In this document: piece after piece, positions 21,500 to 60,745 of the stretch | How the letters are laid out: each line of letters opens with the position of its first letter | Position numbering within the stretch: the first letter of the stretch is position 1 | From: Sphagnum compactum | Taxonomy: Eukaryota | Assembly (NCBI GenBank): GCA_965153455.1 | Contig: OZ234493.1 | Span: 5,766,001 to 5,830,000, forward strand | Direction: 5' to 3' | Length of the DNA stretch: 64,000 bases | The notes under the pieces: model-generated | The model's database searches: none | What the model saw: the letters and a program-made list of their open reading frames with translations, nothing else | Told to the model about the DNA's origin: nothing | Program-made: the position numbers and the translations under genes

Positions 21500-23170
21500 T
21501 ATACAATGGAAGGTTACAAATCCTTTTACAACTCCAAAAGCAATGGAACAATGTCCAAAGATTTATGTCTTTATCCTTAAGTCTTTGTTCGTGATAGGCT
21601 TCCCTAACATGCTCAAAATCCATGTGATTTTGTTCTAAGAGCATAGTCTTCATATTTGATCCCATATCCTTTGCCCAAAGATGAATTCTCATGAGGTCAC
21701 ATTTCTTTGAATCAAACAACAAGGTATGACCTCTATTGACAATATCATTTCTATCCATACAATAGATTTTTAGTGATCCCATGCATGTATAAAACATTAA
21801 TCAACTGTTGTATTGTTCCTTCAAAAATGAAAATATTGACATCCTTTTCATTTTCAATTGGTGAACCTACTATTAGTAAATCTCATTTATGAATTGCCTA
21901 TGATGCTTTTTCATGTTATGTATGAGATTGCTTTTCCTTGTCACATGTTTTGCAACACCATAGTCAAAGTATCATGGACAATTTTCAAGTTCTCCTTTGA
22001 GATGTGTGCTTTGAAAAAATCATTGCTATTTGCACAAAAATTTTTCCTCTAATCTCATGATTTTTTTACACTGCATTCATAATTTGCTTCAACTTTCTTT
22101 TATCAAATTTTTTTTGTAAATTTCTTCGAGCAGTCGTAGATTGAATGGCCATAAGTTCCACAATCGTAATGTTTTCCAAGTTGCTTATGAGATGCCTTGT
22201 TATGATTTGGATTCTTTTTTTTGAAATGTTTGTCATTTAAAATCTTCTTGAAGTTGACAAGGATTGCATGTCATCTAGTAATTTTCATTCTTCTTAGATG
22301 TTGCCAATGAACTTCATTAAATGAGTTTGCTTCATAATTTGTCAAAGGTGCGTAATTCATCTTGTGAATACATTCCACGCACAAAAGCTTCATACTCATA
22401 TAGTAACACATTGAAAACAACTAGAACAACATTAATGCCATGGAGTGTATCTCCCATTCCAATGTTTTGGATCATAGGATCCTTTACCATGATGAGAAAA
22501 TCTTCCATGTTTGTTCCTTCCATATTGATGTTCTAAAGTTTGTATCCAAGCATTAGTTGTCTTGTGTTAGGATTGGGTTCAAAGAGCGCTTTGTGCTTGT
22601 TGGACAACATTTAGCAAGATCCTCCATGTGTTGAATGTAGGGGATGATATTGGTTTTCACTAAGAAATTGATGATGGTGAGTGCCTTCAAAACAAAAATA
22701 GGATCATCAATGACCACACGACTAGGGTTTGGTACAATGTGGTGCCAAACCATTTCCTTCCTCAATATGTTTTTTATTCAAAAATTCCAAGAAGATTAAT
22801 CAAGTACTCCAAGCTTGTTTCCTTTCACTGTTGTTGTGATTGTTGATTTTGTAGTAATGAACCCCACAAGAGTTTTTTCTAGTTAAGCCTTTTGATTGGA
22901 TTTCGCTCTTATTCTATTGATGTAACATAAGATTTGTATGTTTAATTGTCCCTCTCTAACTATTTGCTCAAAGCTAAATCCCCAACTCATCTAAGCAAGG
23001 AGTTTAGCTTTTGCAGTGAGAAACTTTGTGACTATCTATATGCTATTCAAACAACTTATTGCCTCCACATTGCTTTGATACCATGTTGATTTTTTGAGAA
23101 AAGCTACAAAGAGCTTGTAAAGGGATAACATTGTAGCACATAAGTTGATATAATGATCATTAGTGTTCAG
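21500..23170 (-). mobile_element. Decayed Ty1/Copia LTR retrotransposon (internally deleted)
   Basis: PBS TGGTATCAAAGC (tRNA-iMet type, 23083-23072) follows ...TCAACA. Gag: EGTNMEDFLIMVKD...VVLVVFNVLLYEYEAFV...FDKL. Zinc-knuckle relic YDCGTYGHSIYDC (~22130-22170). Protease relic *YFDYGVAKHVT (~21940-21975). Then NRGHTLLFDSKKC and an RT-start-like KNKITWIL..KPIT. The LTR outer boundary is uncertain. Confidence 0.8.
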
Positions 23171-42213: not shown

Positions 42214-43075
42214 CTTTCTTTCTTTCTTTCTTTCTTTTAATTTAACGTCAATACCCGGACCAGAGAGATCCATTTGACGACAATTACATAGTTGACTTGA
42301 GCAAAACACTCCTGTTGTCTAGGCAAGAAACTAAGTACAAAGCTACCGCTTTCTGATTAGCCGAATGCATCAATTCAGGAAGTAAGCTGCACGGTGTCAA
42401 TTGTTTCCCTAATTGTTGACTAAACTTGCAACGAATGTCATGGTGAGCTGGGCACACTAACAACAAGTGGTCTTCATCCTCAACAGCTCCTAGGGAACAT
42501 AGACGACAAATCCTATCTCTCCTCGGGACATTCTCAGGCTTTGCATGCCTGCCACACTCTACCTCCAAACGATGGTTTGAACATCTGAACCTTGACAAAG
42601 ATTGCCTGAGCTGAACATTTGTGATCACTTGCAAATACCTCTTATGTGCATATGAGTATCCAGATTCTGTTGTACAGCTTGTGTTCATCAGCTGGTATGT
42701 ACGTAATCTGCTACTTTTAGTTCTGGCCTGTTCACCATAAGTAGATTCTAGGTAATAAGCCTGTGCACTTGCTATAGCACACTTGATATTAACATAGAGA
42801 ACCTCAACACCTTGGTATTTAAGCCACAACTGCACGTTCCGGAGCCAACATTGTTGGTTATCATTGAGCATGCTGAGCATCTGGATCTGGGTCTGGTAGG
42901 CACAGTACAACAGACGATCTGCTGTGGGTTTTTGTAGCCTATCATAATACCTGAGAGTTTGTTGCCACCAAAAATATTCTAATGGATACCTTCCAAACTC
43001 CCCCAACACAACAAAAATGCTTGTTGTTTTATTGACCCCTAATATTCCTCTCAGGAACATTCTATGTATAACCAA
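42214..43075 (-). mobile_element. 5'-truncated non-LTR retrotransposon (LINE) 3' end, RTEX-like
   Basis: Uninterrupted post-RT frame HRMFLRGILGV...VLGEFGRYPL...LSRFRCSNHRLEVECGRH...RICRLCSLGAVEDEDHLLLVCP (CCHC), stop at 42284. A short 3' UTR with a hairpin ends GACGTTAAA and is followed by a (GAAA)5 tail. Confidence 0.85.
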
Positions 43076-43203
43076 ATCAGCACATAAGGAACACAACACT
43101 AGTGTTTGATCACTATTTACTTTTTCCACGAGGATCTATTGAGTGTTGAAGTGGTGGTTAGAGGTTTGCTTAAGCCTTTGAAATAATATTCAAATTTTGG
43201 TTG

Positions 43204-43471
43204 TGTCATGGCCTAGGATATTTTGGGATACTTTTGGCAATGTCATGTCCTAGGATATTTTGGGATACTTTTGGCAATATCATGGCCTAGGATATTTTGG
43301 GATACTTTTGGCAATATCATGGCCTAGGATATTTTGAGACTAGTATGGCTCAGGGTTATAAAAGGAGATAGTCTGGGGAACAACCCTTTAGCAGATCAAC
43401 ACCAGTTGATGGATCAATAAAGCTTGTCTTGTCTTGTAATTCTCCACTTGTTTTGTAGTCGGTCCATAACA
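43204..43471 (+). repeat. 5' LTR (268 bp)
   Basis: U3 is ~3.6 copies of a 37-bp unit; TATAAAA at 43357; AATAAA at 43416; identical to the 3' LTR except for one extra T. Confidence 0.97.
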
Positions 43472-43473
43472 GT

Positions 43474-43483
43474 TTGATCTGCT
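43474..43483 (+). promoter_or_regulatory. Self-priming-type primer binding site
   Basis: TTGATCTGCT is the exact reverse complement of AGCAGATCAA (43390-43399) in the LTR. There is no TGG-starting tRNA PBS. Confidence 0.8.
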
Positions 43484-43612
43484 CCTTCTTCTTGTTTGTT
43501 TGTTTTGTTGTTTCAGTAAGTAGCTAGAGGTATATTGGAGTGAAACTTGGAAAGGTTATAGAAGACTATAGGACGCTTCTACTCTCAAAGTTTCAAAAGA
43601 AAAGGATATGTT

Positions 43613-43955
43613 TTGAGAGAGATCCAAGCATCTGAAGTTTCAAGTGCAGATCTGGTTTTTTGGTCATATCTCCTTTGTGTAAGCTTTTCTGGGTCTGTAA
43701 CTTTGTGATCTTATAGATCATATAGGAATATATGTGTGAGAGAAATTTCATGTCATTTGGACTTGTATTGAGAGAGATCCAAGCATCTGAAGTTTCAAGT
43801 GCAGATCTGGTTTTTTGGTCATATCTCCTTTTTGTAAGCTTTTTTGGGTCTGTAACTTTGTGATCTTATAGATCATATAGGAATATATGTGTGAGAGAAA
43901 TTTCATGTCATTTGGACTTGTATTGAGAGAGATCCAAGCATCTGAAGTTTCAAGT
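43613..43955 (+). repeat. 155-bp tandem repeat (2.2 copies) in the retroelement 5' UTR
   Basis: TTGAGAGAGATCCAAGCATCTGAAG... at 43613, 43768 and 43923; copies nearly identical. Confidence 0.9.
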
Positions 43956-43993: not shown

Positions 43994-44968
43994 ATGGACA
44001 ACTCAAAATCCAACATCGATCTCACTCAAATCCTCGCCGCCCTTCAACACCTTCAACAAGAAAATGCCGTGCTTAGAGACTCGGTGACCCGCCTACAGAA
44101 TCAGCCACCACCTCCTGCCCCAGTACTTCGTGCTCTTGCAATGGCCGCCCAAGAACCCAAGATCAGTCTGCCAAAAAAGTTTGATGGAACGCGCCTCAAA
44201 TTTCGAGGCTTTGTCAGCTAGGTACGCCTGATCATGCAACTACACCCCCGTCGTTATTTTGATGACACCACTCGTGTAGGATTCGTTGGAACCCTACTCA
44301 CTGGGACAGCTGCAGCATGGTTTACTCCCATCCTGGAAACATCATCCCCTCTTCTACAAGATTTCAACGCCTTTATGGCGGAATTTGAAGCAGTATTTGA
44401 GGACAGTGATAAGGCCAGGACTTCAGCCAACAAGCTGTGTCGCCTCCAGCAAGGGACACGTTCGGCCATCGTCTACACTTCAGAATTCAGGCAGCTTGCC
44501 TGTGACGTCAATTGGGGAGAAGCTGCCTTGATTGATCAGTTTCGCTGTGGGCTTCGTGATGATGTTCAAGATCTTTTGTTGACACTCGCAGACCCTTCTT
44601 CCTTCAGTGAAGCCATCACCCAGGCAATTCGGTGCGATAATCGTCTGTTCGAACGTCGCCAGGAAAAGAAAGTCACCTCCAACGCCCAGCTTTGGAACAG
44701 TCGGCCTATTACGCTCCCCTTAGTTCCCCAAACAACACCAGTTGCCCGACCTGCCTCTTTTGGACCAGCTCCGATGCAGATCGACACAGCTAAGTTTAAA
44801 TCTTTGACAGAAGCCGAGAAACTTCGCCAAAGGACAAACAATCTATGTCTTTACTGTGGCAACCCAGGGCATATAGCTCGTCAATGCCCTCAAAAGCTTG
44901 TCAAACTTCAGGTACAAGCTGTGGAAACTCCCCAGGAGTTGGAAAACAAGAACATCCAGTCACAGTAG
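43994..44968 (+). pseudogene. gag: Gag of the chromovirus, with one in-frame TAG at 44219-44221
   Basis: MDNSKS...EPKISLPKKFDGTRLKFRGFVS*VRLIMQLHP...LQQGTRSAIVYTSEF...PAPMQID...CLYCGNPGHIARQC (CCHC). Both listed ORFs (43979, 44234) are in the same frame. Confidence 0.9.
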
Positions 44969-47900
44969 GAGCCGTGCGACTGGATCTCACCCAACACCAC
45001 CTTTGCAAAGGCTCCTGTTCCGCTGTTGGTCCCAGTCCCAGTTTCACTCAGTATGTGGACATCATTCGTATTCCAGATGACATACCACAAGTGTCAGCTT
45101 TGGTGGACTCCGGCGCCACCTCTTCTTTCATCGACCAAACATTTGTCGTCCAACACAACATCCCTGTGGTCAAGAAGTCAACCCCTGTTCCGGTAGAGGT
45201 TATTGATGGGAGAACCATTGCTTCTGGTGCAATCACACACGAGACAACCCCTCTAGAACTCTGTATCGGTAAGCACACGGAGAAGATTGTTCTCAACATC
45301 ATTTCCACCCCTCACCATCCCATCATCCTTGGTCTGCCTTGGCTAGAAGCACACAACCCTATCATTGATTGGCGATCTAGAACCCTCACCTTCAGCGCAC
45401 AACGATGCACCTCTCAAGAACCCCACGCTCAGAAAAACACTTTGTCCAGTCCTGCCAAGAACCCTGTGGTCGAGAACCCAAAGAGGGTCGGAACCAATTC
45501 CAGTTTTATCAAGTCTGTTATGTCAAATCCTGCAGTCAAGAACCCCCGATTGGTCAGAACGAAACCTTGTCTTGTCAAGAATCTTGTCAAAAATTCTGCC
45601 CAAAAAACTAACCCTGTCCAGATCTTCGTTGATAGAGCTGTCCCTTTCTATCGGGCTGCTAAGAATCTTCAAGTCTTCGCCATCCATGTCAACCCAGCCA
45701 ACACCACAAACCCCCAATCGGAACCAACACCTGTCAAACTTCCCAAGAAGTACAAGGACTTTGTTGATGTTTTTGAAAAGATTAATGCTGATAAGCTCCC
45801 CGCCCATAGTCCATATGACTGCCTGATTGATCTAGAAGAAGGACAGTCACCACCCTTTGGTCCTATCTATGGCCTATCGGAACCGGAATTCCAAGCCCTG
45901 CGTGATTACCTTACTGAAAATCTTGCTAAGGGGTTCATTCAGCATTCCAAGTCTCCAGCCGGCGCCCCAATTTTGTTTGTCAAGAAGAAGGATGGCTCCG
46001 TTCGACTTTGTGTGGATTATCGTGGACTCAACAAGATAACCAAAAAGAATCGATATCCTTTGCCCTTGATTTCAGGTCTCCTAGATCGACTACGTACCGG
46101 GAAGATCTTCACCAAGCTTGACCTCCATGGAGCCTACAACTTACTCAGGATTCGCCCTGGTGATGAATGGAAGACAGTTTTCCGCACACACTATGGCCAC
46201 TTCGAATACACGGTCATGCCCTTCGGCCTCACCAATGCACCCGCAGTCTTTCAGCATCTGATGAATGATATCTTCCGGGATTACATGGACGAATTTGTCG
46301 TGGTCTATTTGGATGACATTTTAATCTTTTCCAAGGACCAGGAAACCCACGACAAACATGTACGATTGGTGCTTGCGACGCTGCGGGAGCATGGCTTATA
46401 CGCCAAGTTGGAAAAATGTAAATTCGACAAATCTTCAGTGGCGTTCCTCGGCTACGTGATCTCTCCAGATGGCATTTTCATGGACAAGTCAAAGGTCGAG
46501 ACCATCCAGTGTTGGGCTACTCCATCCTCGGTCAAGGACGTTCAACGCTTCCTAAGGTTTGCCAACTTCTATCGTCGGTTTATCAAAGGCTATTCCAAGA
46601 TCACAACACCGTTAATAACCCTGACTTGCAAAGACAAGCCCTTCTCGTGGAATCCAACGGCCCAGGTTGCTTTTGATACTCTCAAGATGGCATTCATCTC
46701 TGCACCCATCCTGATACATCCCGATCCTACCAAGCCATTCATTGTGGAAACGGACGCTTCAGATTTTGCCTTGGGAGCTATTCTATTTCAATTTGGAATA
46801 GATGGGTTGTTGCATCCAGTTGCTTTCTATTCACGGAAGTTAACCAGTGCCGAAATCAACTACCAGGTCTACGATAAGGAACTCCTGGCAATCATCACGG
46901 CATTCGAGCAGTGGAGACCGTATCTTGCCGGAGCTCAACATCGAGTCCAAGTTCTGACAGATCATAAGAATCTCCTTTATTTCACAACTACTCGGACTTT
47001 AAATCGTCGCCAGGCACGCTGGTCTATCTTCCTAGCTGATTTCGACTTTGAGATTCAGTATCAACCCGGCACCCAGCAAGGGAAAGTTGACGCGCTATCT
47101 CGTCGTTCAGAATATGAACTTCGAGCGGGGGATGAGGCCTACGGCCAGCAGAACCAGACTTTATTCAACCCCAAGCAATTTCGAGTTGCAGCAACAATCA
47201 GCACCCTCCCAGACTCATACCTTGTCAGGGACATCAAGATAGCAACTGAGGAAGACACCTGGGCTACCAACATCAAGAACGAACTCCAGGAACGACCAAG
47301 GAACCCAAATCGTGATGACTTGGATCAATTTGAGCAGCAAGACGGACTTCTTGTTCGAAATAACCTGATTTATGTACCCGAAGGACCTATACGCCTAAAA
47401 ATCCTGAGGGAATGCCACGACAACACCCTGGCAGGTCACTTTGGAATGGCACGGACTCACGAACTAGTGTCAAAGACTTACTGGTGGCCCAAAATGAACA
47501 AGATGCTACGGGAGTATGTCAAGTCTTGTGATACATGTGCTCGATCCAAGGCTCCCAGGCATCACCCGTTTGGACTCCTACAGCCTCTGTCGATTTTTAG
47601 CCAACCTTGGGGATCTATTGCAATGGACTTCATCACGGACCTCCCTACTGTCAGAACCAAGAATTCAATACTGGTTGTGGTCGATCGACTCACCAAAATG
47701 GCCCATTTCACCCCTTGTTCCAAGTTAATCACGGCAGAAGAGACAGCTCAGTTAATTCTGGACGGGATCGTCCGACTGCATGGACTCCCCGAGGAAATTG
47801 TGTCCGACAGAGGTCCTCAGTTTGCATCCAAGTTCTGGCATCGTCTATTCGAGCTTCTTGGAGTTGACATTCGGCTATCTTCAGCTTTCCACCCTGAGAC

Positions 47901-48699
47901 AGATGGACAAACCGAACAGACAAACCAGACACTCGAGCAATACCTTCGCTGCACTGTGAACTACCAACAGGACGACTGGCTGGACCTACTATCTCAAGCA
48001 GAGTTTGCTTATAATAACATAACACATGCATCGACCGGGATCAGTCCATTCTTTGCCAATTACGGTTTTCATCCCAGGTTCAGCCTTGAAATTCCTGGAG
48101 ACTCCGTAAACCCCTCGGCTGAAGAAAGGGCCATGAGGCTTGGACAGGTTCAACAGAACCTTATGGTAGAACTCAAGCTAACACAGGAGTGGCAAAAGAA
48201 GCAAGCAGACCGCCGACGCAAGGACCATCCAAACTTCAAGGTTGGAGACAAGGTCTGGCTTCTCAGAAAGAACATTGCTACCACTCGCCCATGTGCCAAG
48301 TTGGATTACAAGCGCCTCGGACCTTTCAAAATCGCCAAATTGGTTGGTCTAGTGGCTTGCCAGTTGGAGCTTCCACCCCAGTTCAAAATCCACAATGTTT
48401 TCCATGTCTCCCTGCTTGAGCCCAATCATGAAAACCCGATCCCAGAACGTCATCAAGAACCCCCAGCTCCAGTCGAAATTGAAGGCCAAGAAGAGTTTGA
48501 AGTTCAGGAGGTCTTGGACTCCAAGAAGATTCGTGGAAAGTTTCTGTACCTTGTCTTTTGGCGAGGTTATCCTCCTTCTGAAGCTACTTGGGAGCCTGCT
48601 GGAAACCTAGTTCATGCCCAAGACTTAGTTAATCGGTTTCACCAACGATATCCTAACAAACCGGCTCCATCTAGAAGATGTCGCTTGAGGAGAGGATAA
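44941..48699 (+). CDS. pol: Pol polyprotein (aspartic protease, RT, RNase H, integrase, chromodomain) in the -1 frame relative to gag
   Basis: LVDSGAT; LCVDYRGLN, YLDDILI; VETDASD, YDKELLAI, TDHKNL; H-H-C-C zinc finger, IAMDFITDL, VSDRG, GQTE; GPF; FEVQEVLDS..YLVFWRGY..TWEP. The frame is open to the stop at 48697-48699. Confidence 0.95.
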   Translation, partial: GKQEHPVTVGAVRLDLTQHHLCKGSCSAVGPSPSFTQYVDIIRIPDDIPQVSALVDSGATSSFIDQTFVVQHNIPVVKKSTPVPVEVIDGRTIASGAITHETTPLELCIGKHTEKIVLNIISTPHHPIILGLPWLEAHNPIIDWRSRTLTFSAQRCTSQEPHAQKNTLSSPAKNPVVENPKRVGTNSSFIKSVMSNPAVKNPRLVRTKPCLVKNLVKNSAQKTNPVQIFVDRAVPFYRAAKNLQVFAIHVNPANTTNPQSEPTPVKLPKKYKDFVDVFEKINADKLPAHSPYDCLIDLEEGQSPPFGPIYGLSEPEFQALRDYLTENLAKGFIQHSKSPAGAPILFVKKKDGSVRLCVDYRGLNKITKKNRYPLPLISGLLDRLRTGKIFTKLDLHGAYNLLRIRPGDEWKTVFRTHYGHFEYTVMPFGLTNAPAVFQHLMNDIFRDYMDEFVVVYLDDILIFSKDQETHDKHVRLVLATLREHGLYAKLEKCKFDKSSVAFLGYVISPDGIFMDKSKVETIQCWATPSSVKDVQRFLRFANFYRRFIKGYSKITTPLITLTCKDKPFSWNPTAQVAFDTLKMAFISAPILIHPDPTKPFIVETDASDFALGAILFQFGIDGLLHPVAFYSRKLTSAEINYQVYDKELLAIITAFEQWRPYLAGAQHRVQVLTDHKNLLYFTTTRTLNRRQARWSIFLADFDFEIQYQPGTQQGKVDALSRRSEYELRAGDEAYGQQNQTLFNPKQFRVAATISTLPDSYLVRDIKIATEEDTWATNIKNELQERPRNPNRDDLDQFEQQDGLLVRNNLIYVPEGPIRLKILRECHDNTLAGHFGMARTHELVSKTYWWPKMNKMLREYVKSCDTCARSKAPRHHPFGLLQPLSIFSQPWGSIAMDFITDLPTVRTKNSILVVVDRLTKMAHFTPCSKLITAEETAQLILDGIVRLHGLPEEIVSDRGPQFASKFWHRLFELLGVDIRLSSAFHPETDGQTEQTNQTLEQYLRCTVNYQQDDWLDLLSQAEFAYNNITHASTGISPFFANYGFHPRFSLEIPGDSVNPSAEERAMRLGQVQQNLMVELKLTQEWQKKQADRRRKDHPNFKVGDKVWLLRKNIATTRPCAKLDYKRLGPFKIAKLVGLVACQLELPPQFKIHNVFHVSLLEPNHENPIPERHQEPPAPVEIEGQEEFEVQEVLDSKKIRGKFLYLVFWRGYPPSEATWEPAGNLVHAQDLVNRFHQRYPNKPAPSRRCRLRRG

Positions 48700-48966
48700 T
48701 GTCATGGCCTAGGATATTTTGGGATACTTTTGGCAATGTCATGTCCTAGGATATTTTGGGATACTTTTGGCAATATCATGGCCTAGGATATTTTGGGATA
48801 CTTTTGGCAATATCATGGCCTAGGATATTTTGAGACTAGTATGGCTCAGGGTTATAAAAGGAGATAGTCTGGGGAACAACCCTTTAGCAGATCAACACCA
48901 GTTGATGGATCAATAAAGCTTGTCTTGTCTTGTAATTCTCCACTTGTTTGTAGTCGGTCCATAACA
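48700..48966 (+). repeat. 3' LTR (267 bp)
   Basis: Direct repeat of 43204-43471. Confidence 0.97.
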
Positions 48967-50278
48967 GGTTGGGTGCTATAATATCAAGGAGTGACTTCTC
49001 AATGCAAGTTATTCATTTGCAACTAAGCTGAATTTTGCAAGTAAACCAAATGTTGTAAGTTTGCCAACTTAATTTAGATCATTTTGTAATTTTGCTTGTC
49101 TTAACAACATCCGGTATTCCCCATGCATATTTCAAGTTTCTAAAATTTTCACCCTTTTGGCCATTCTTTCTCTCTCTCTCAAAATTGCAGTTCCTTTTCA
49201 ATCAAGTTCTTAATGTGCTTGAGGTTGTAGGTGAAGTAAGAATTTAAATTGGAGTTCACTTTCTTTTGAGATATTTTTGTTGTCGACATGTATTCAAATT
49301 CTTTGCAATGGAGGAGACTTGGGATCAAGGGGATGTTTTTGTTCAATATGTTGTTTTGGGAACAATTTCTCACCTTTAAAGAGGGAAAGATACTTTGCTG
49401 AAAAGATTGGAATCAGACTTTTTTTTTTTTTTTTTTCACTCTATCATTTCCACAAATAAATGTGTCTAATTGTTATCTAATTGTATGTATGTATGCCCAA
49501 GTAGCAGAAGCAGCCTTGTCGGGCACACCATTTCCTCCACAACAACACAGAAAATGTTCAATTCGCAAAGACTTTTCATTGTTGTGGGTCCACAAACCTT
49601 GGGATGGTTTTTGCAAACCTTGAGATGGTTTTTGTTGAAGAAATGATGGCAACCCACCAACTTGAGTCTTGTTCTCCTCAACAACCATGCACCTTGTCAA
49701 ATTGCATAATATGGTGGACCCTGGACTTTGATGGATTTTTGTAAAGAACTATACCCTAGTACCTTGGCTTGTTAGGTGGCTTGTTAGGTACTAATTAATT
49801 CTTTTTAGAAATGCCAAAAATTCTGAAAATTCTGTGCCTGCCATGCCAAAAATCTGAATGAAGCTCTCAAGCAGAATAGCTTCAATTTGTAGTATAATGT
49901 CAAATTGTATATTATTTTTATTTTCAAATAATAATAATTATAATAATAATAATTAATCCCAATATACATTTTCAAAACTGAACTCATTCTCACCATTGGA
50001 TCTTGGGGGTATGTCTTGTCAGTGGACCATAAAATTAGTGAACCTCTCAACAGAGAGTTGAAGAATTCATCAAACTTGCATATCATTTGGTACAGAGACA
50101 GTTTTGTACAACACATGTTTTGAAGAATAATTAATTTCATTTTGAAGATTTCCAAATTTCATGTCCCAAAAAATATCAATTTCCCAAATAATTCCCTATT
50201 TTATTTTACAAATAAAAAATTCCTAGGCAAAAAAAAATTGTTGAAAATTTCAACATTTCTACAAATAATATTACTTAT

Positions 50279-59036: not shown

Positions 59037-59203
59037 GGCAATCTGGGGTTGGGAACAAGCCCCCTTCTTCTTCTTCGTTGTTCTCGGTATGGAGACCGAA
59101 TTGTGTTGGGCATTGTGGGCATGGCGATGGCGAAGAAGCTGCTGATAGTGTGCTCGAGGATTTGGTTATTGAGATAGTCAGACGAGAGAGAAAGAGAGAA
59201 ATC

Positions 59204-60745
59204 ATGGCCAAGGTGAGGAAGAGGGGGCAGCCGCGAAGCTCCCGTCAAGCCAGCAACGGCAGCAGCACGAAGAAAAGAAGGACAGGGGAGAAGGAAAATG
59301 TAGGTGGAGGAGGGCGTGGAAAAAACAACAAGGATGCGTCGTCTTCGTTCAAGAAGCCTGTGAGAGACGAGGAGCTTCTAAGCGAGGAAGATGAGTTCGA
59401 TAACGGTGCTCCAGATATCCCTTCTTCCCCAGATGAAGGTGAGGATGCTGCAGAGTTGGAAACTGCTGACGAGAAGCGCTTACGTCTTGCTAAATCGTAT
59501 TTGGATCGAACTCGGCAATCGGTTGCTGATGCAGAGGAGGATGAGGAGGAGGATCAAGATGTGGAGCAGCGAAGAGGGGCCAGAGATAGCATGGTTGCGG
59601 ATTTACTCCAGCAAGAACAGCTTGAAGAGAGCGGTCGAATACAGCGCAAGCTGGCTGCCAGAGTGCTTGCACCAGCAACACTTCAGGAAGGACGGCCAGT
59701 AGGCCGAAAGCATCGCCAAGCCGTGACAGCGGTATGTATCTCTGAAGACGACTCCACAGGGTTTGCCGCATCCAAGGATGGTCTATTGGTACAATGGAAC
59801 ATCGAGACAGGCTTGAGTGAGAAGTACGAATGGCCTTCTTCCCAACAAGAGCCTTCCAAAACAAATGGTAGCAAGAAGAAGCAGCAGGGAAGTCGGCACA
59901 TTCTTGCAGTAGCAACTAGCTCAGATGGCCGCTATCTGGCATCAGGAGGATTGGATAGGTCTGTACATATCTGGGACACTCGCACTCGGCAACATCTCCA
60001 GGCTTTTGCTGGTCACAGGGGAGCTGTGACAAGTCTAGGGTTTAGGAAAGGCACCCAACAGCTTTTCTCTGGTTCTCTGGACCGCACTATCAAGCTATGG
60101 AGTGTGGATACACGTTCTTACATTGACACATTGTATGGTCACCAAAGTGAAATTGTCTCTCTTGATTGTCTGCGACAGGAACGGGTCCTTTCTGCAGGCC
60201 GTGACCGCACACTGCGGCTTTGGAAGATTCCAGAGGAATCCCAACTTGTGTTCAGAGGTCATGCAGCTCACATGGAGAGTTGCTGCTTCATATCCAATGG
60301 GGAGTTTCTTTCAGGTTCTGATGATGGTTGTGTGGCTCTGTGGAATACAATACGGAAGAAGCCAGTTTCTATCATGCGGAATGCACATGGAAGTAGTTCA
60401 GGTGTACAACATCAGACCACAGAGAATGCAAATGGGTTAGCAGCAGCAGCAGCAGCGGGAGCTGCAGAGTCTTGGGTAGGAGCAGTAGCAGTTTGCAGTA
60501 GCAGTGATCTGGCAGCATCTGGAGCTGGGGATGGAACTGTGCAGCTGTGGGCACTTGAGGATGCAAACCGCAGTCTTCGAGCACTTCATGGTTTGGCAGT
60601 GAAAGGATTTGTGAATTCCTTGGCTTTTGCAAACTCAGGTCGCTTCCTTCTTGTGGGTACAGGACAAGAGCCTCGAATGGGTAGATGGGCAAGGAATCCT
60701 GATTCCGAGAATAGAGTTTTCCTCCATCCTATCAGTTTGAGGTAA
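59204..60745 (+). CDS. RRP9: U3 snoRNP-associated WD40 protein (RRP9/U3-55K, YAO-like), 513 aa, no introns in the visible CDS
   Basis: Basic and acidic N-terminus, ETADEKRLRLAKSYL, WD40 repeats (SSDGRYLASGGLDRSVHIWD; YIDTLYGHQ; RERV-like LRQERVLSAGRDRT), C-terminal GQEPRMGRW. The first in-frame ATG is at 59204; the TTG start at 59078 in the ORF track is unlikely. Confidence 0.93.
   Translation: MAKVRKRGQPRSSRQASNGSSTKKRRTGEKENVGGGGRGKNNKDASSSFKKPVRDEELLSEEDEFDNGAPDIPSSPDEGEDAAELETADEKRLRLAKSYLDRTRQSVADAEEDEEEDQDVEQRRGARDSMVADLLQQEQLEESGRIQRKLAARVLAPATLQEGRPVGRKHRQAVTAVCISEDDSTGFAASKDGLLVQWNIETGLSEKYEWPSSQQEPSKTNGSKKKQQGSRHILAVATSSDGRYLASGGLDRSVHIWDTRTRQHLQAFAGHRGAVTSLGFRKGTQQLFSGSLDRTIKLWSVDTRSYIDTLYGHQSEIVSLDCLRQERVLSAGRDRTLRLWKIPEESQLVFRGHAAHMESCCFISNGEFLSGSDDGCVALWNTIRKKPVSIMRNAHGSSSGVQHQTTENANGLAAAAAAGAAESWVGAVAVCSSSDLAASGAGDGTVQLWALEDANRSLRALHGLAVKGFVNSLAFANSGRFLLVGTGQEPRMGRWARNPDSENRVFLHPISLR

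Follow-up and report, generated by a model that had tools for sequence, protein, structure and literature searches.

Probable self-priming of reverse transcription in a Ty3/gypsy chromovirus of Sphagnum compactum

A Ty3/gypsy chromovirus on the plus strand of a 64-kb stretch of Sphagnum compactum DNA (the whole stretch analysed, hereafter the window) probably primes reverse transcription with the 5' end of its own RNA. Self-priming of the Tf1 type is, with considerable confidence, our best reading of this element, and it is the route that a first-pass annotation of the window had proposed; the R/PBS complementarity found in relatives and the absence of a tRNA 3'-end site both speak in its favor. 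The reading is carried by the complementarity between the LTR and the primer-binding site (PBS), the position of the paired segments, the lack of a tRNA 3'-end site, the conservation and covariation of the pair in relatives, and the transcription of the family, all of which we observed. In the proposed mechanism, RNA polymerase II would start ~33 nt past the TATA box, at A43390, and the first 10 nt of the RNA, AGCAGAUCAA, would fold back onto the PBS 2 nt past U5, with a neighbouring R/U5 helix (predicted from sequence and folding) possibly assisting the pairing. By analogy with Tf1, the element's own RNase H would then cut the RNA at the duplex end, and the 3' OH thus exposed on the 10-nt piece would prime DNA synthesis through the GT spacer, U5, and R; a tRNA would not be required.

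The element has a total length of 5768 nt (~5.77 kb), and the same 5 nt, GGTTG, flank both of its LTRs as a target-site duplication (left 43199-43203, right 48967-48971). Direct-repeat comparison placed the 5' LTR at 43204-43471 (268 nt) and the 3' LTR at 48700-48966 (267 nt), both of the TG...CA type, and these limits fit the description given in the first-pass annotation. The sole difference between the two LTRs is one T in the T-run at 43451-43454, and because they differ only by this T, we regard the insertion as recent. Within the 5' LTR, U3 spans ~43204-43389, R runs from ~43390 to 43440, and U5 continues onward to 43471, with the R/U5 border inferred from the AATAAA polyadenylation signal that lies in R at 43416-43421. 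U3 contains a tandem array (43206-43336, 37-nt unit x 3.5), which may be enhancer-like; sequencing runs of RNA and DNA, as well as contigs from other copies, contain joints that step back by 35-37 nt, which indicates that the copy number of the 37-nt repeat varies among family members.

Downstream of the PBS, the untranslated leader carries a second tandem repeat before the gag start (43609-43955, 155-nt unit x 2.2, 98% match). The gag gene (43994-44968) encodes a Retrotrans_gag domain, a Ty3 capsid, and a CCHC knuckle, and in the window copy it is broken by one in-frame TAG at 44219-44221. The pol gene (44800-48699) lies in the -1 frame relative to gag, stays open for 1299 codons, and contains, by Pfam, a protease, RVT_1, RNase H, an integrase, the SH3-like SH3_Tf2-1, and a C-terminal Chromo domain. 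Its stop codon (TAA) directly adjoins the 3' LTR, such that the polypurine tract GAGGAGAGGA together with the TAA stop occupies 48687-48699, immediately before that LTR.

The 5' LTR ends in ...CCATAACA at 43471 and is followed by GTTTGATCTGCT (43472-43483), in which the predicted PBS, TTGATCTGCT (43474-43483, plus strand), begins 2 nt beyond the LTR end, with a GT(T) spacer in between. TTGATCTGCT and AGCAGATCAA (43390-43399, plus strand) are exact reverse complements of each other, and the latter, the predicted self-primer, would form the first 10 nt of the transcript; the perfect 10-nt pairing noted in the first-pass annotation therefore holds. Extension of this duplex on either side leads to a mismatch, and 43472-43473 can pair additionally with 43401-43402 over a 1-nt bulge. 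Also confirmed was the earlier observation that the pairing segment begins 33 nt past the first T of TATAAAA (43357-43363), which is the single TATA[AT][AG] motif, and the only TATA, in the LTR. When random interior 16-nt windows were searched in the same manner, a perfect LTR complement of at least 10 nt (to either LTR) was found for 4 of 500, and a control with 20-nt windows from the element interior yielded 6 of 500; the real match, in addition, has the canonical PBS offset and targets the expected Pol II start. By our own, uncomputed estimate, the LTR offers ~258 possible target starts, roughly 10 of which would fit the TATA spacing. An R/PBS match by chance is unlikely.

The sequence TGG does not occur in the 40 nt following 43471, and a tRNA 3'-end site is therefore absent. 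This bears out the claim, made in the first-pass annotation, that no TGG-type PBS follows the 5' LTR, and it leaves no possible match between the PBS and tRNA 3' ends. Among the tRNA-primed plant chromoviruses (Tekay, Reina, CRM, and Galadriel), the PBS is described as mostly being for the tRNA-Met 3' end (PMC6317226); with no TGG after its LTR, the window element lacks such a tRNA-Met-type site. A tRNA gene search of the 64-kb window and of the five related moss loci L001, L002, L010, L011, and L012 returned no genes. A primer could also be drawn from other parts of cellular RNA, namely the interior of a tRNA, one of its halves, or some other small RNA, in which case the match to the LTR would be incidental, and half-tRNA priming does exist in plant Ty1/copia lineages (PMC6317226). 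However, in the text of the same survey half-tRNA sites appear in Ty1/copia only (PMC6317226), a tRNA 3' end is excluded by the missing TGG, and the PBS changes together with R in the sister family represented by L010 (see below). Moreover, a shared cellular primer is not expected because the PBS sequences of the relatives differ, each matching its own LTR, and we consider priming by a cellular RNA very unlikely.

A Copia relic, recognized in the first-pass annotation, bears TGGTATCAAAGC on the minus strand at 23060-23085, which we take to resemble an initiator-Met-type tRNA primer site. If TGGTATCAAAGC is indeed a tRNA primer site, a tRNA-primed element and a self-primed element lie within the same 64 kb.

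The spacing between the TATA box and the complementary segment is nearly constant among the elements that we compared. The complement begins exactly 33 nt past the first T of TATA in six of seven elements (the window element, L010, L032, L036, L059, and L063), with a spacing of 35 nt in L045. Further, the bases at -1/+1 of the complement start are pyrimidine/A in all seven, and T/A in the window. The constant spacing and the pyrimidine/A step both argue for a transcript that begins with this segment.

In the MFE fold of 43390-43500, nucleotides 1-10 are paired with the PBS. This fold has a predicted energy of -26 kcal/mol (z -2.67), and 1 of 200 shuffles was equally good. A second predicted pairing joins the R segment GTTGATGGATC (43405-43415, plus strand) to the end of U5 (43461-43470), and the resulting R/U5 helix would stack beside the primer/PBS duplex, as it also does in the predicted fold of L010. 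This helix shows no covariation because its sequence is conserved. A comparable structure beside the primer duplex is described as required in Tf1, which gives the predicted helix of the window element a counterpart there. Moreover, all six distant relatives that were folded have an MFE structure in which the PBS is paired with the predicted 5' end.

Relatives were collected by a pol-alignment scan of metagenome contigs, in which at least 597 stretches were matched, at least 558 were confirmed, and at least 80 loci were kept; a scan of viral contigs with pol gave 14 pattern matches, none of which was confirmed. Two of the close relatives, L010 and L011, are one locus seen twice, and with 83-85% pol identity they represent a sister family. 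As the LTRs of this locus are only 84% alike, we regard it as an old copy. Its segments corresponding to the primer read AGCAGACCAA in the 5' LTR and AGTAGACCAA in the 3' LTR, and its PBS reads TTGGTCTATT. Compared with the window element, a T>C change at R position 7 is offset by an A>G change at PBS position 4, and the pair is thus compensatory. Among the other differences, a G>A change in the PBS has a matching C>T in R, though only in the 3' LTR copy, which makes it a partial pair; a C>T change in the PBS leaves G.U pairing possible; and one C.A mismatch persists in the 5' LTR of L010. Of the compensatory changes between R and the PBS that the first-pass annotation had suggested looking for in the family, one clean pair and one partial pair are thus seen in L010/L011, and the same geometry recurs in 5 of 12 distant relatives (described below).

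Two closer copies have lost parts of the arrangement. L002 (90% pol identity), which is the closest copy retaining the LTR/leader junction among the matches listed, has kept AGCAGATCAA, and the PBS stretch is gone. It is most simply a dead copy, and the site is not kept in every copy of the family. In L001 (9523-9800), the TATA box and the R start are kept and then run straight into gag, the deletion having removed U5, the PBS, the leader, and the gag start.

For more distant comparisons, we used the 12 loci (10 families) with both LTR ends within the contig, among the matches listed. A direct repeat was found at 28 loci, of which 20 were inspected and these 12 kept. Left out were L004, L006, L007, L022, and L029 (repeat coding, tandem, or ambiguous); L016, L057, L062, and L076 (3' copy cut by the contig end); and L020, L023, L027, L055, L066, L067, and L071 (terminal overlaps only). 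Matches of 8-9 nt in L076 and L057 were dropped, as the cut 3' LTR leaves the LTR end undefined in both. A perfect complement of 10-12 nt lies 0-2 nt after the LTR in 5 of the 12 loci (4 of 10 families), these being L032 and L036, which form one family, L045, L059, and L063. The primer and PBS sequences of these five are unrelated to those of the window element, and each PBS matches its own LTR. The match falls below 10 nt in the other 7 loci, with only 8 nt in L010 and L019, 7 nt in L042, and an unconvincing 0-7 nt in L049, L064, L080, and L033. In a pooled control, random internal 16-mers reached 9 nt in 99 of 6000 cases.

A blind search for a complement of at least 11 nt after a CA gave matches in 12 of 35 loci upstream, versus 3 of 35 coding controls. 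This search found L045, L059, and L063 again, with L078 as a new case, and these four look like true PBS; the remaining upstream matches were taken as chance.

The pairing between R and the PBS could instead be a structural feature of the leader RNA that serves packaging, dimerisation, translation control, or a similar function, with priming achieved otherwise, or it could be a chance match. The 4 of 500 random 16-mers that reach 10 nt and the 7 of 12 relatives that stay below 10 nt lend this alternative some weight. It is countered by the placement of the paired segment exactly at the PBS position, 2 nt past the CA end, with no other primer site visible, as well as by the recurrence of the same offset and of the 33-nt TATA spacing in unrelated sequences. 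Furthermore, Tf1 and Tj1, which have the same geometry, are described as self-primed (PMC4600332). We hold another role, or chance, to be very improbable, and self-priming to be the better account of the pairing.

The six loci L032, L036, L045, L059, L063, and L078 have pol identities of 40-45%, and at their junctions TGACA is followed by G(T/A) and then by the PBS. Their primer segments all begin with AGT, extended to AGTCTG in five of the six and to AGTTCG in L045. The AGT start and the TGACA junction look like a conserved start/primer motif across families. The hosts of these six elements are probably fungal.

The family is transcribed. X24 is a single raw polyA RNA-seq run labelled as the same species. 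In the ~12% of it that was read, 397 reads fell on 43300-43650, with the first mate mostly on the minus strand; transcription would thus be mainly sense, provided that the library follows the usual stranded protocol. X24 reads pass from the pol end and the polypurine tract into U3 (loose ends at 43313), as expected for full-length RNA. No sharp place of starts or ends was reported from X24, where the depth over R mixes reads from both ends of the RNA. A dip in depth at 43444-43455 was considered as an RNA end and rejected, since it coincides with the 1-nt indel and with heterogeneous copies. From 43612 onward, the RNA depth rises ~fourfold, as expected if reads from several copies of the 155-nt repeat pile up there. 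In the RNA libraries X1 and X2 there are contigs that reach from U3 to the PBS, and read-through, DNA carry-over, and mis-joined repeats would each produce such contigs and cannot be told apart in them. In a diverged RNA contig, record 1 of X1, both 10-mers are intact among 11 changes, which is uninformative because only ~1 change would be expected there by chance.

These data also bear on whether the element is a relic, that is, whether the family once self-primed while today's copies, including that in the window, are all inactive. The in-frame stop in the gag of the window copy, the deleted PBS of L002, and the deletion in L001 that joins R to gag would fit such a state. Against it stand the near-identity of the LTRs, which one 1-nt indel sets apart, a pol frame uninterrupted over 1299 codons, and the transcription of the family. 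We regard a wholly inactive family as highly improbable, and the question bears on activity rather than on the mechanism of priming. The description of the element as young in the first-pass annotation is accordingly upheld by its near-identical LTRs, with the reservation that its gag carries the stop.

Polymorphism within the family was visible in the DNA contigs of X18, a different Sphagnum data set. At two paired positions, changes were found on both sides of the duplex in comparable shares: 43391 G>A (14 contigs, 12%) is paired with 43482 C>T (9 contigs, 16%), and 43392 C>T (14 contigs, 11%) is paired with 43481 G>A (12 contigs, 22%). A further change, 43394 G>A, was present in 10 contigs with no partner change listed. 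All of these changes are transitions, the paired ones at possible methylation sites, and none was linked to another on one record. As a sign of co-change between R and the PBS, the paired polymorphisms are suggestive only.

The self-primer of Tf1 is reported as not being removed. If the window element behaves in the same way, R and the PBS could be expected to change together, because an unremoved self-primer could let the two convert each other. A more far-reaching possibility, which we put forward tentatively and regard as doubtful, is that the Sphagnum family is active now, with its primer and PBS co-evolving; the X18 pairs and the L010 PBS variant would then mark co-changed sublineages, and the driver would be the self-primer, copied into the PBS in each cycle. 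If true, this would be the first plant system for following self-priming and built-in R/PBS conversion in natural populations.

To our knowledge, self-priming has been demonstrated experimentally in fission yeast only, whereas for the window element we infer it. The primer duplex of Tf1 is 11 bp long, versus 10 bp in the window element, and Tf1 has a single ORF, versus the overlapping gag and pol, in the -1 frame, of the window element. Self-priming has been described for Tf1 (S. pombe) and proposed for Tj1 (S. japonicus) (PMC4600332, PMC5006619). The window element resembles both, as they are described, in being a Ty3/gypsy element with a chromodomain integrase and a PBS complementary to the 5' end, predicted in its case, of its own mRNA (PMC4600332).

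Among plants, the closest parallel is the Tcn1 clade of chromoviruses, which there is confined to mosses and club-mosses and most plant members of which, according to the text of one survey, are without tRNA sites and are predicted self-primers (Neumann et al. 2019, PMC6317226). A self-primer is defined there by a complementarity of at least 10 bp that begins 0-5 bp after the 5' LTR (PMC6317226), and the window element has 10 bp at offset 2. Because that survey predicted the same for the moss Tcn1 clade, and the window element agrees exactly with its definition, self-priming here is not new. The element is like the plant Tcn1 clade (REXdb, PMC6317226) in its moss host, its aromatic-cage chromodomain, and its lack of a tRNA PBS. 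The word Sphagnum does not occur in the main text of the survey (PMC6317226), and we found no published account of self-priming in Sphagnum in a literature search that covered texts outside the supplementary element tables.

Other plant elements share some of these features. SM-Tcn1 from Selaginella moellendorffii (Novikova et al. 2010, PMC2864245) likewise belongs to the Tcn1-like chromoviruses, comes from a non-seed plant, and has LTRs of the TG...CA type as well as a 5-bp duplication, a TATA box, and a polypurine tract adjoining the 3' LTR (PMC2864245). Its authors obtained evidence of neither tRNA- nor self-priming (PMC2864245), whereas a self-primer is evident in the window element. The TAR lineage of plant Ty1/copia (Houba and Osr-1) likewise comprises plant LTR retrotransposons that are predicted to self-prime (PMC6317226). 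Unlike the window element, TAR belongs to the other superfamily, has the copia domain order, is without a chromodomain, and resides in seed plants.

The classification of the window element agrees with these comparisons. Its chromodomain aligns with those of CDY, HP1, and SUV39H1 and has F, W, and Y in the three columns of the aromatic cage, and it is hence a classical (group I) chromodomain. An earlier study reports this type solely from Tcn1-like elements in non-seed plants (Novikov et al. 2012, PMC3350952). The Ty3/gypsy domain order and the C-terminal position of the chromodomain are those of the Tcn1/Tf1-sushi group, and membership of the Tcn1 clade or the Tf1-sushi group is likely on this sequence evidence. 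In the best 120 pol matches, the named taxa comprise fungi, vertebrates, an amoebozoan, and the charophyte Closterium, and the nearest named relatives are Tf1/sushi-type elements from the fungi, vertebrates, and charophyte; seed plants are not among these 120, the closest of which are short contigs at 64% identity.

Self-priming in plants rests on the sequence criterion of one survey, to which peat moss adds a clear, young, and transcribed example. Two modest additions are the constant distance of 33 nt from the TATA box and the compensatory change seen in L010/L011; they sharpen the prediction, and both the transcription start and the primer are directly testable in Sphagnum. The general view of how LTR elements prime reverse transcription is unchanged.

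The surroundings of the element agree with a moss host. An intron-less WD40 ORF of 555 codons lies 10 kb downstream (59078-60745, plus strand) and encodes a U3 snoRNP-associated, YAO/EMB2271-like protein. Over the part searched, it is 100% identical to a Sphagnum compactum protein, and its next relatives come from other bryophytes; the host is thus a moss (Sphagnum), in keeping with the moss and club-moss hosts of the plant Tcn1 branch. The GC content of the element interior (44001-48000) is 0.49, versus 0.28-0.38 in most of the surrounding window. Horizontal transfer was considered for this contrast and set aside, as coding sequence alone is a sufficient explanation. On the other side of the element, a 281-codon ORF occupies 42284-43129 on the minus strand, and the element adjoins it or sits inside it. 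By eye, this ORF resembles the C-terminal portion of a reverse transcriptase of the LINE type, including a cysteine-rich motif.
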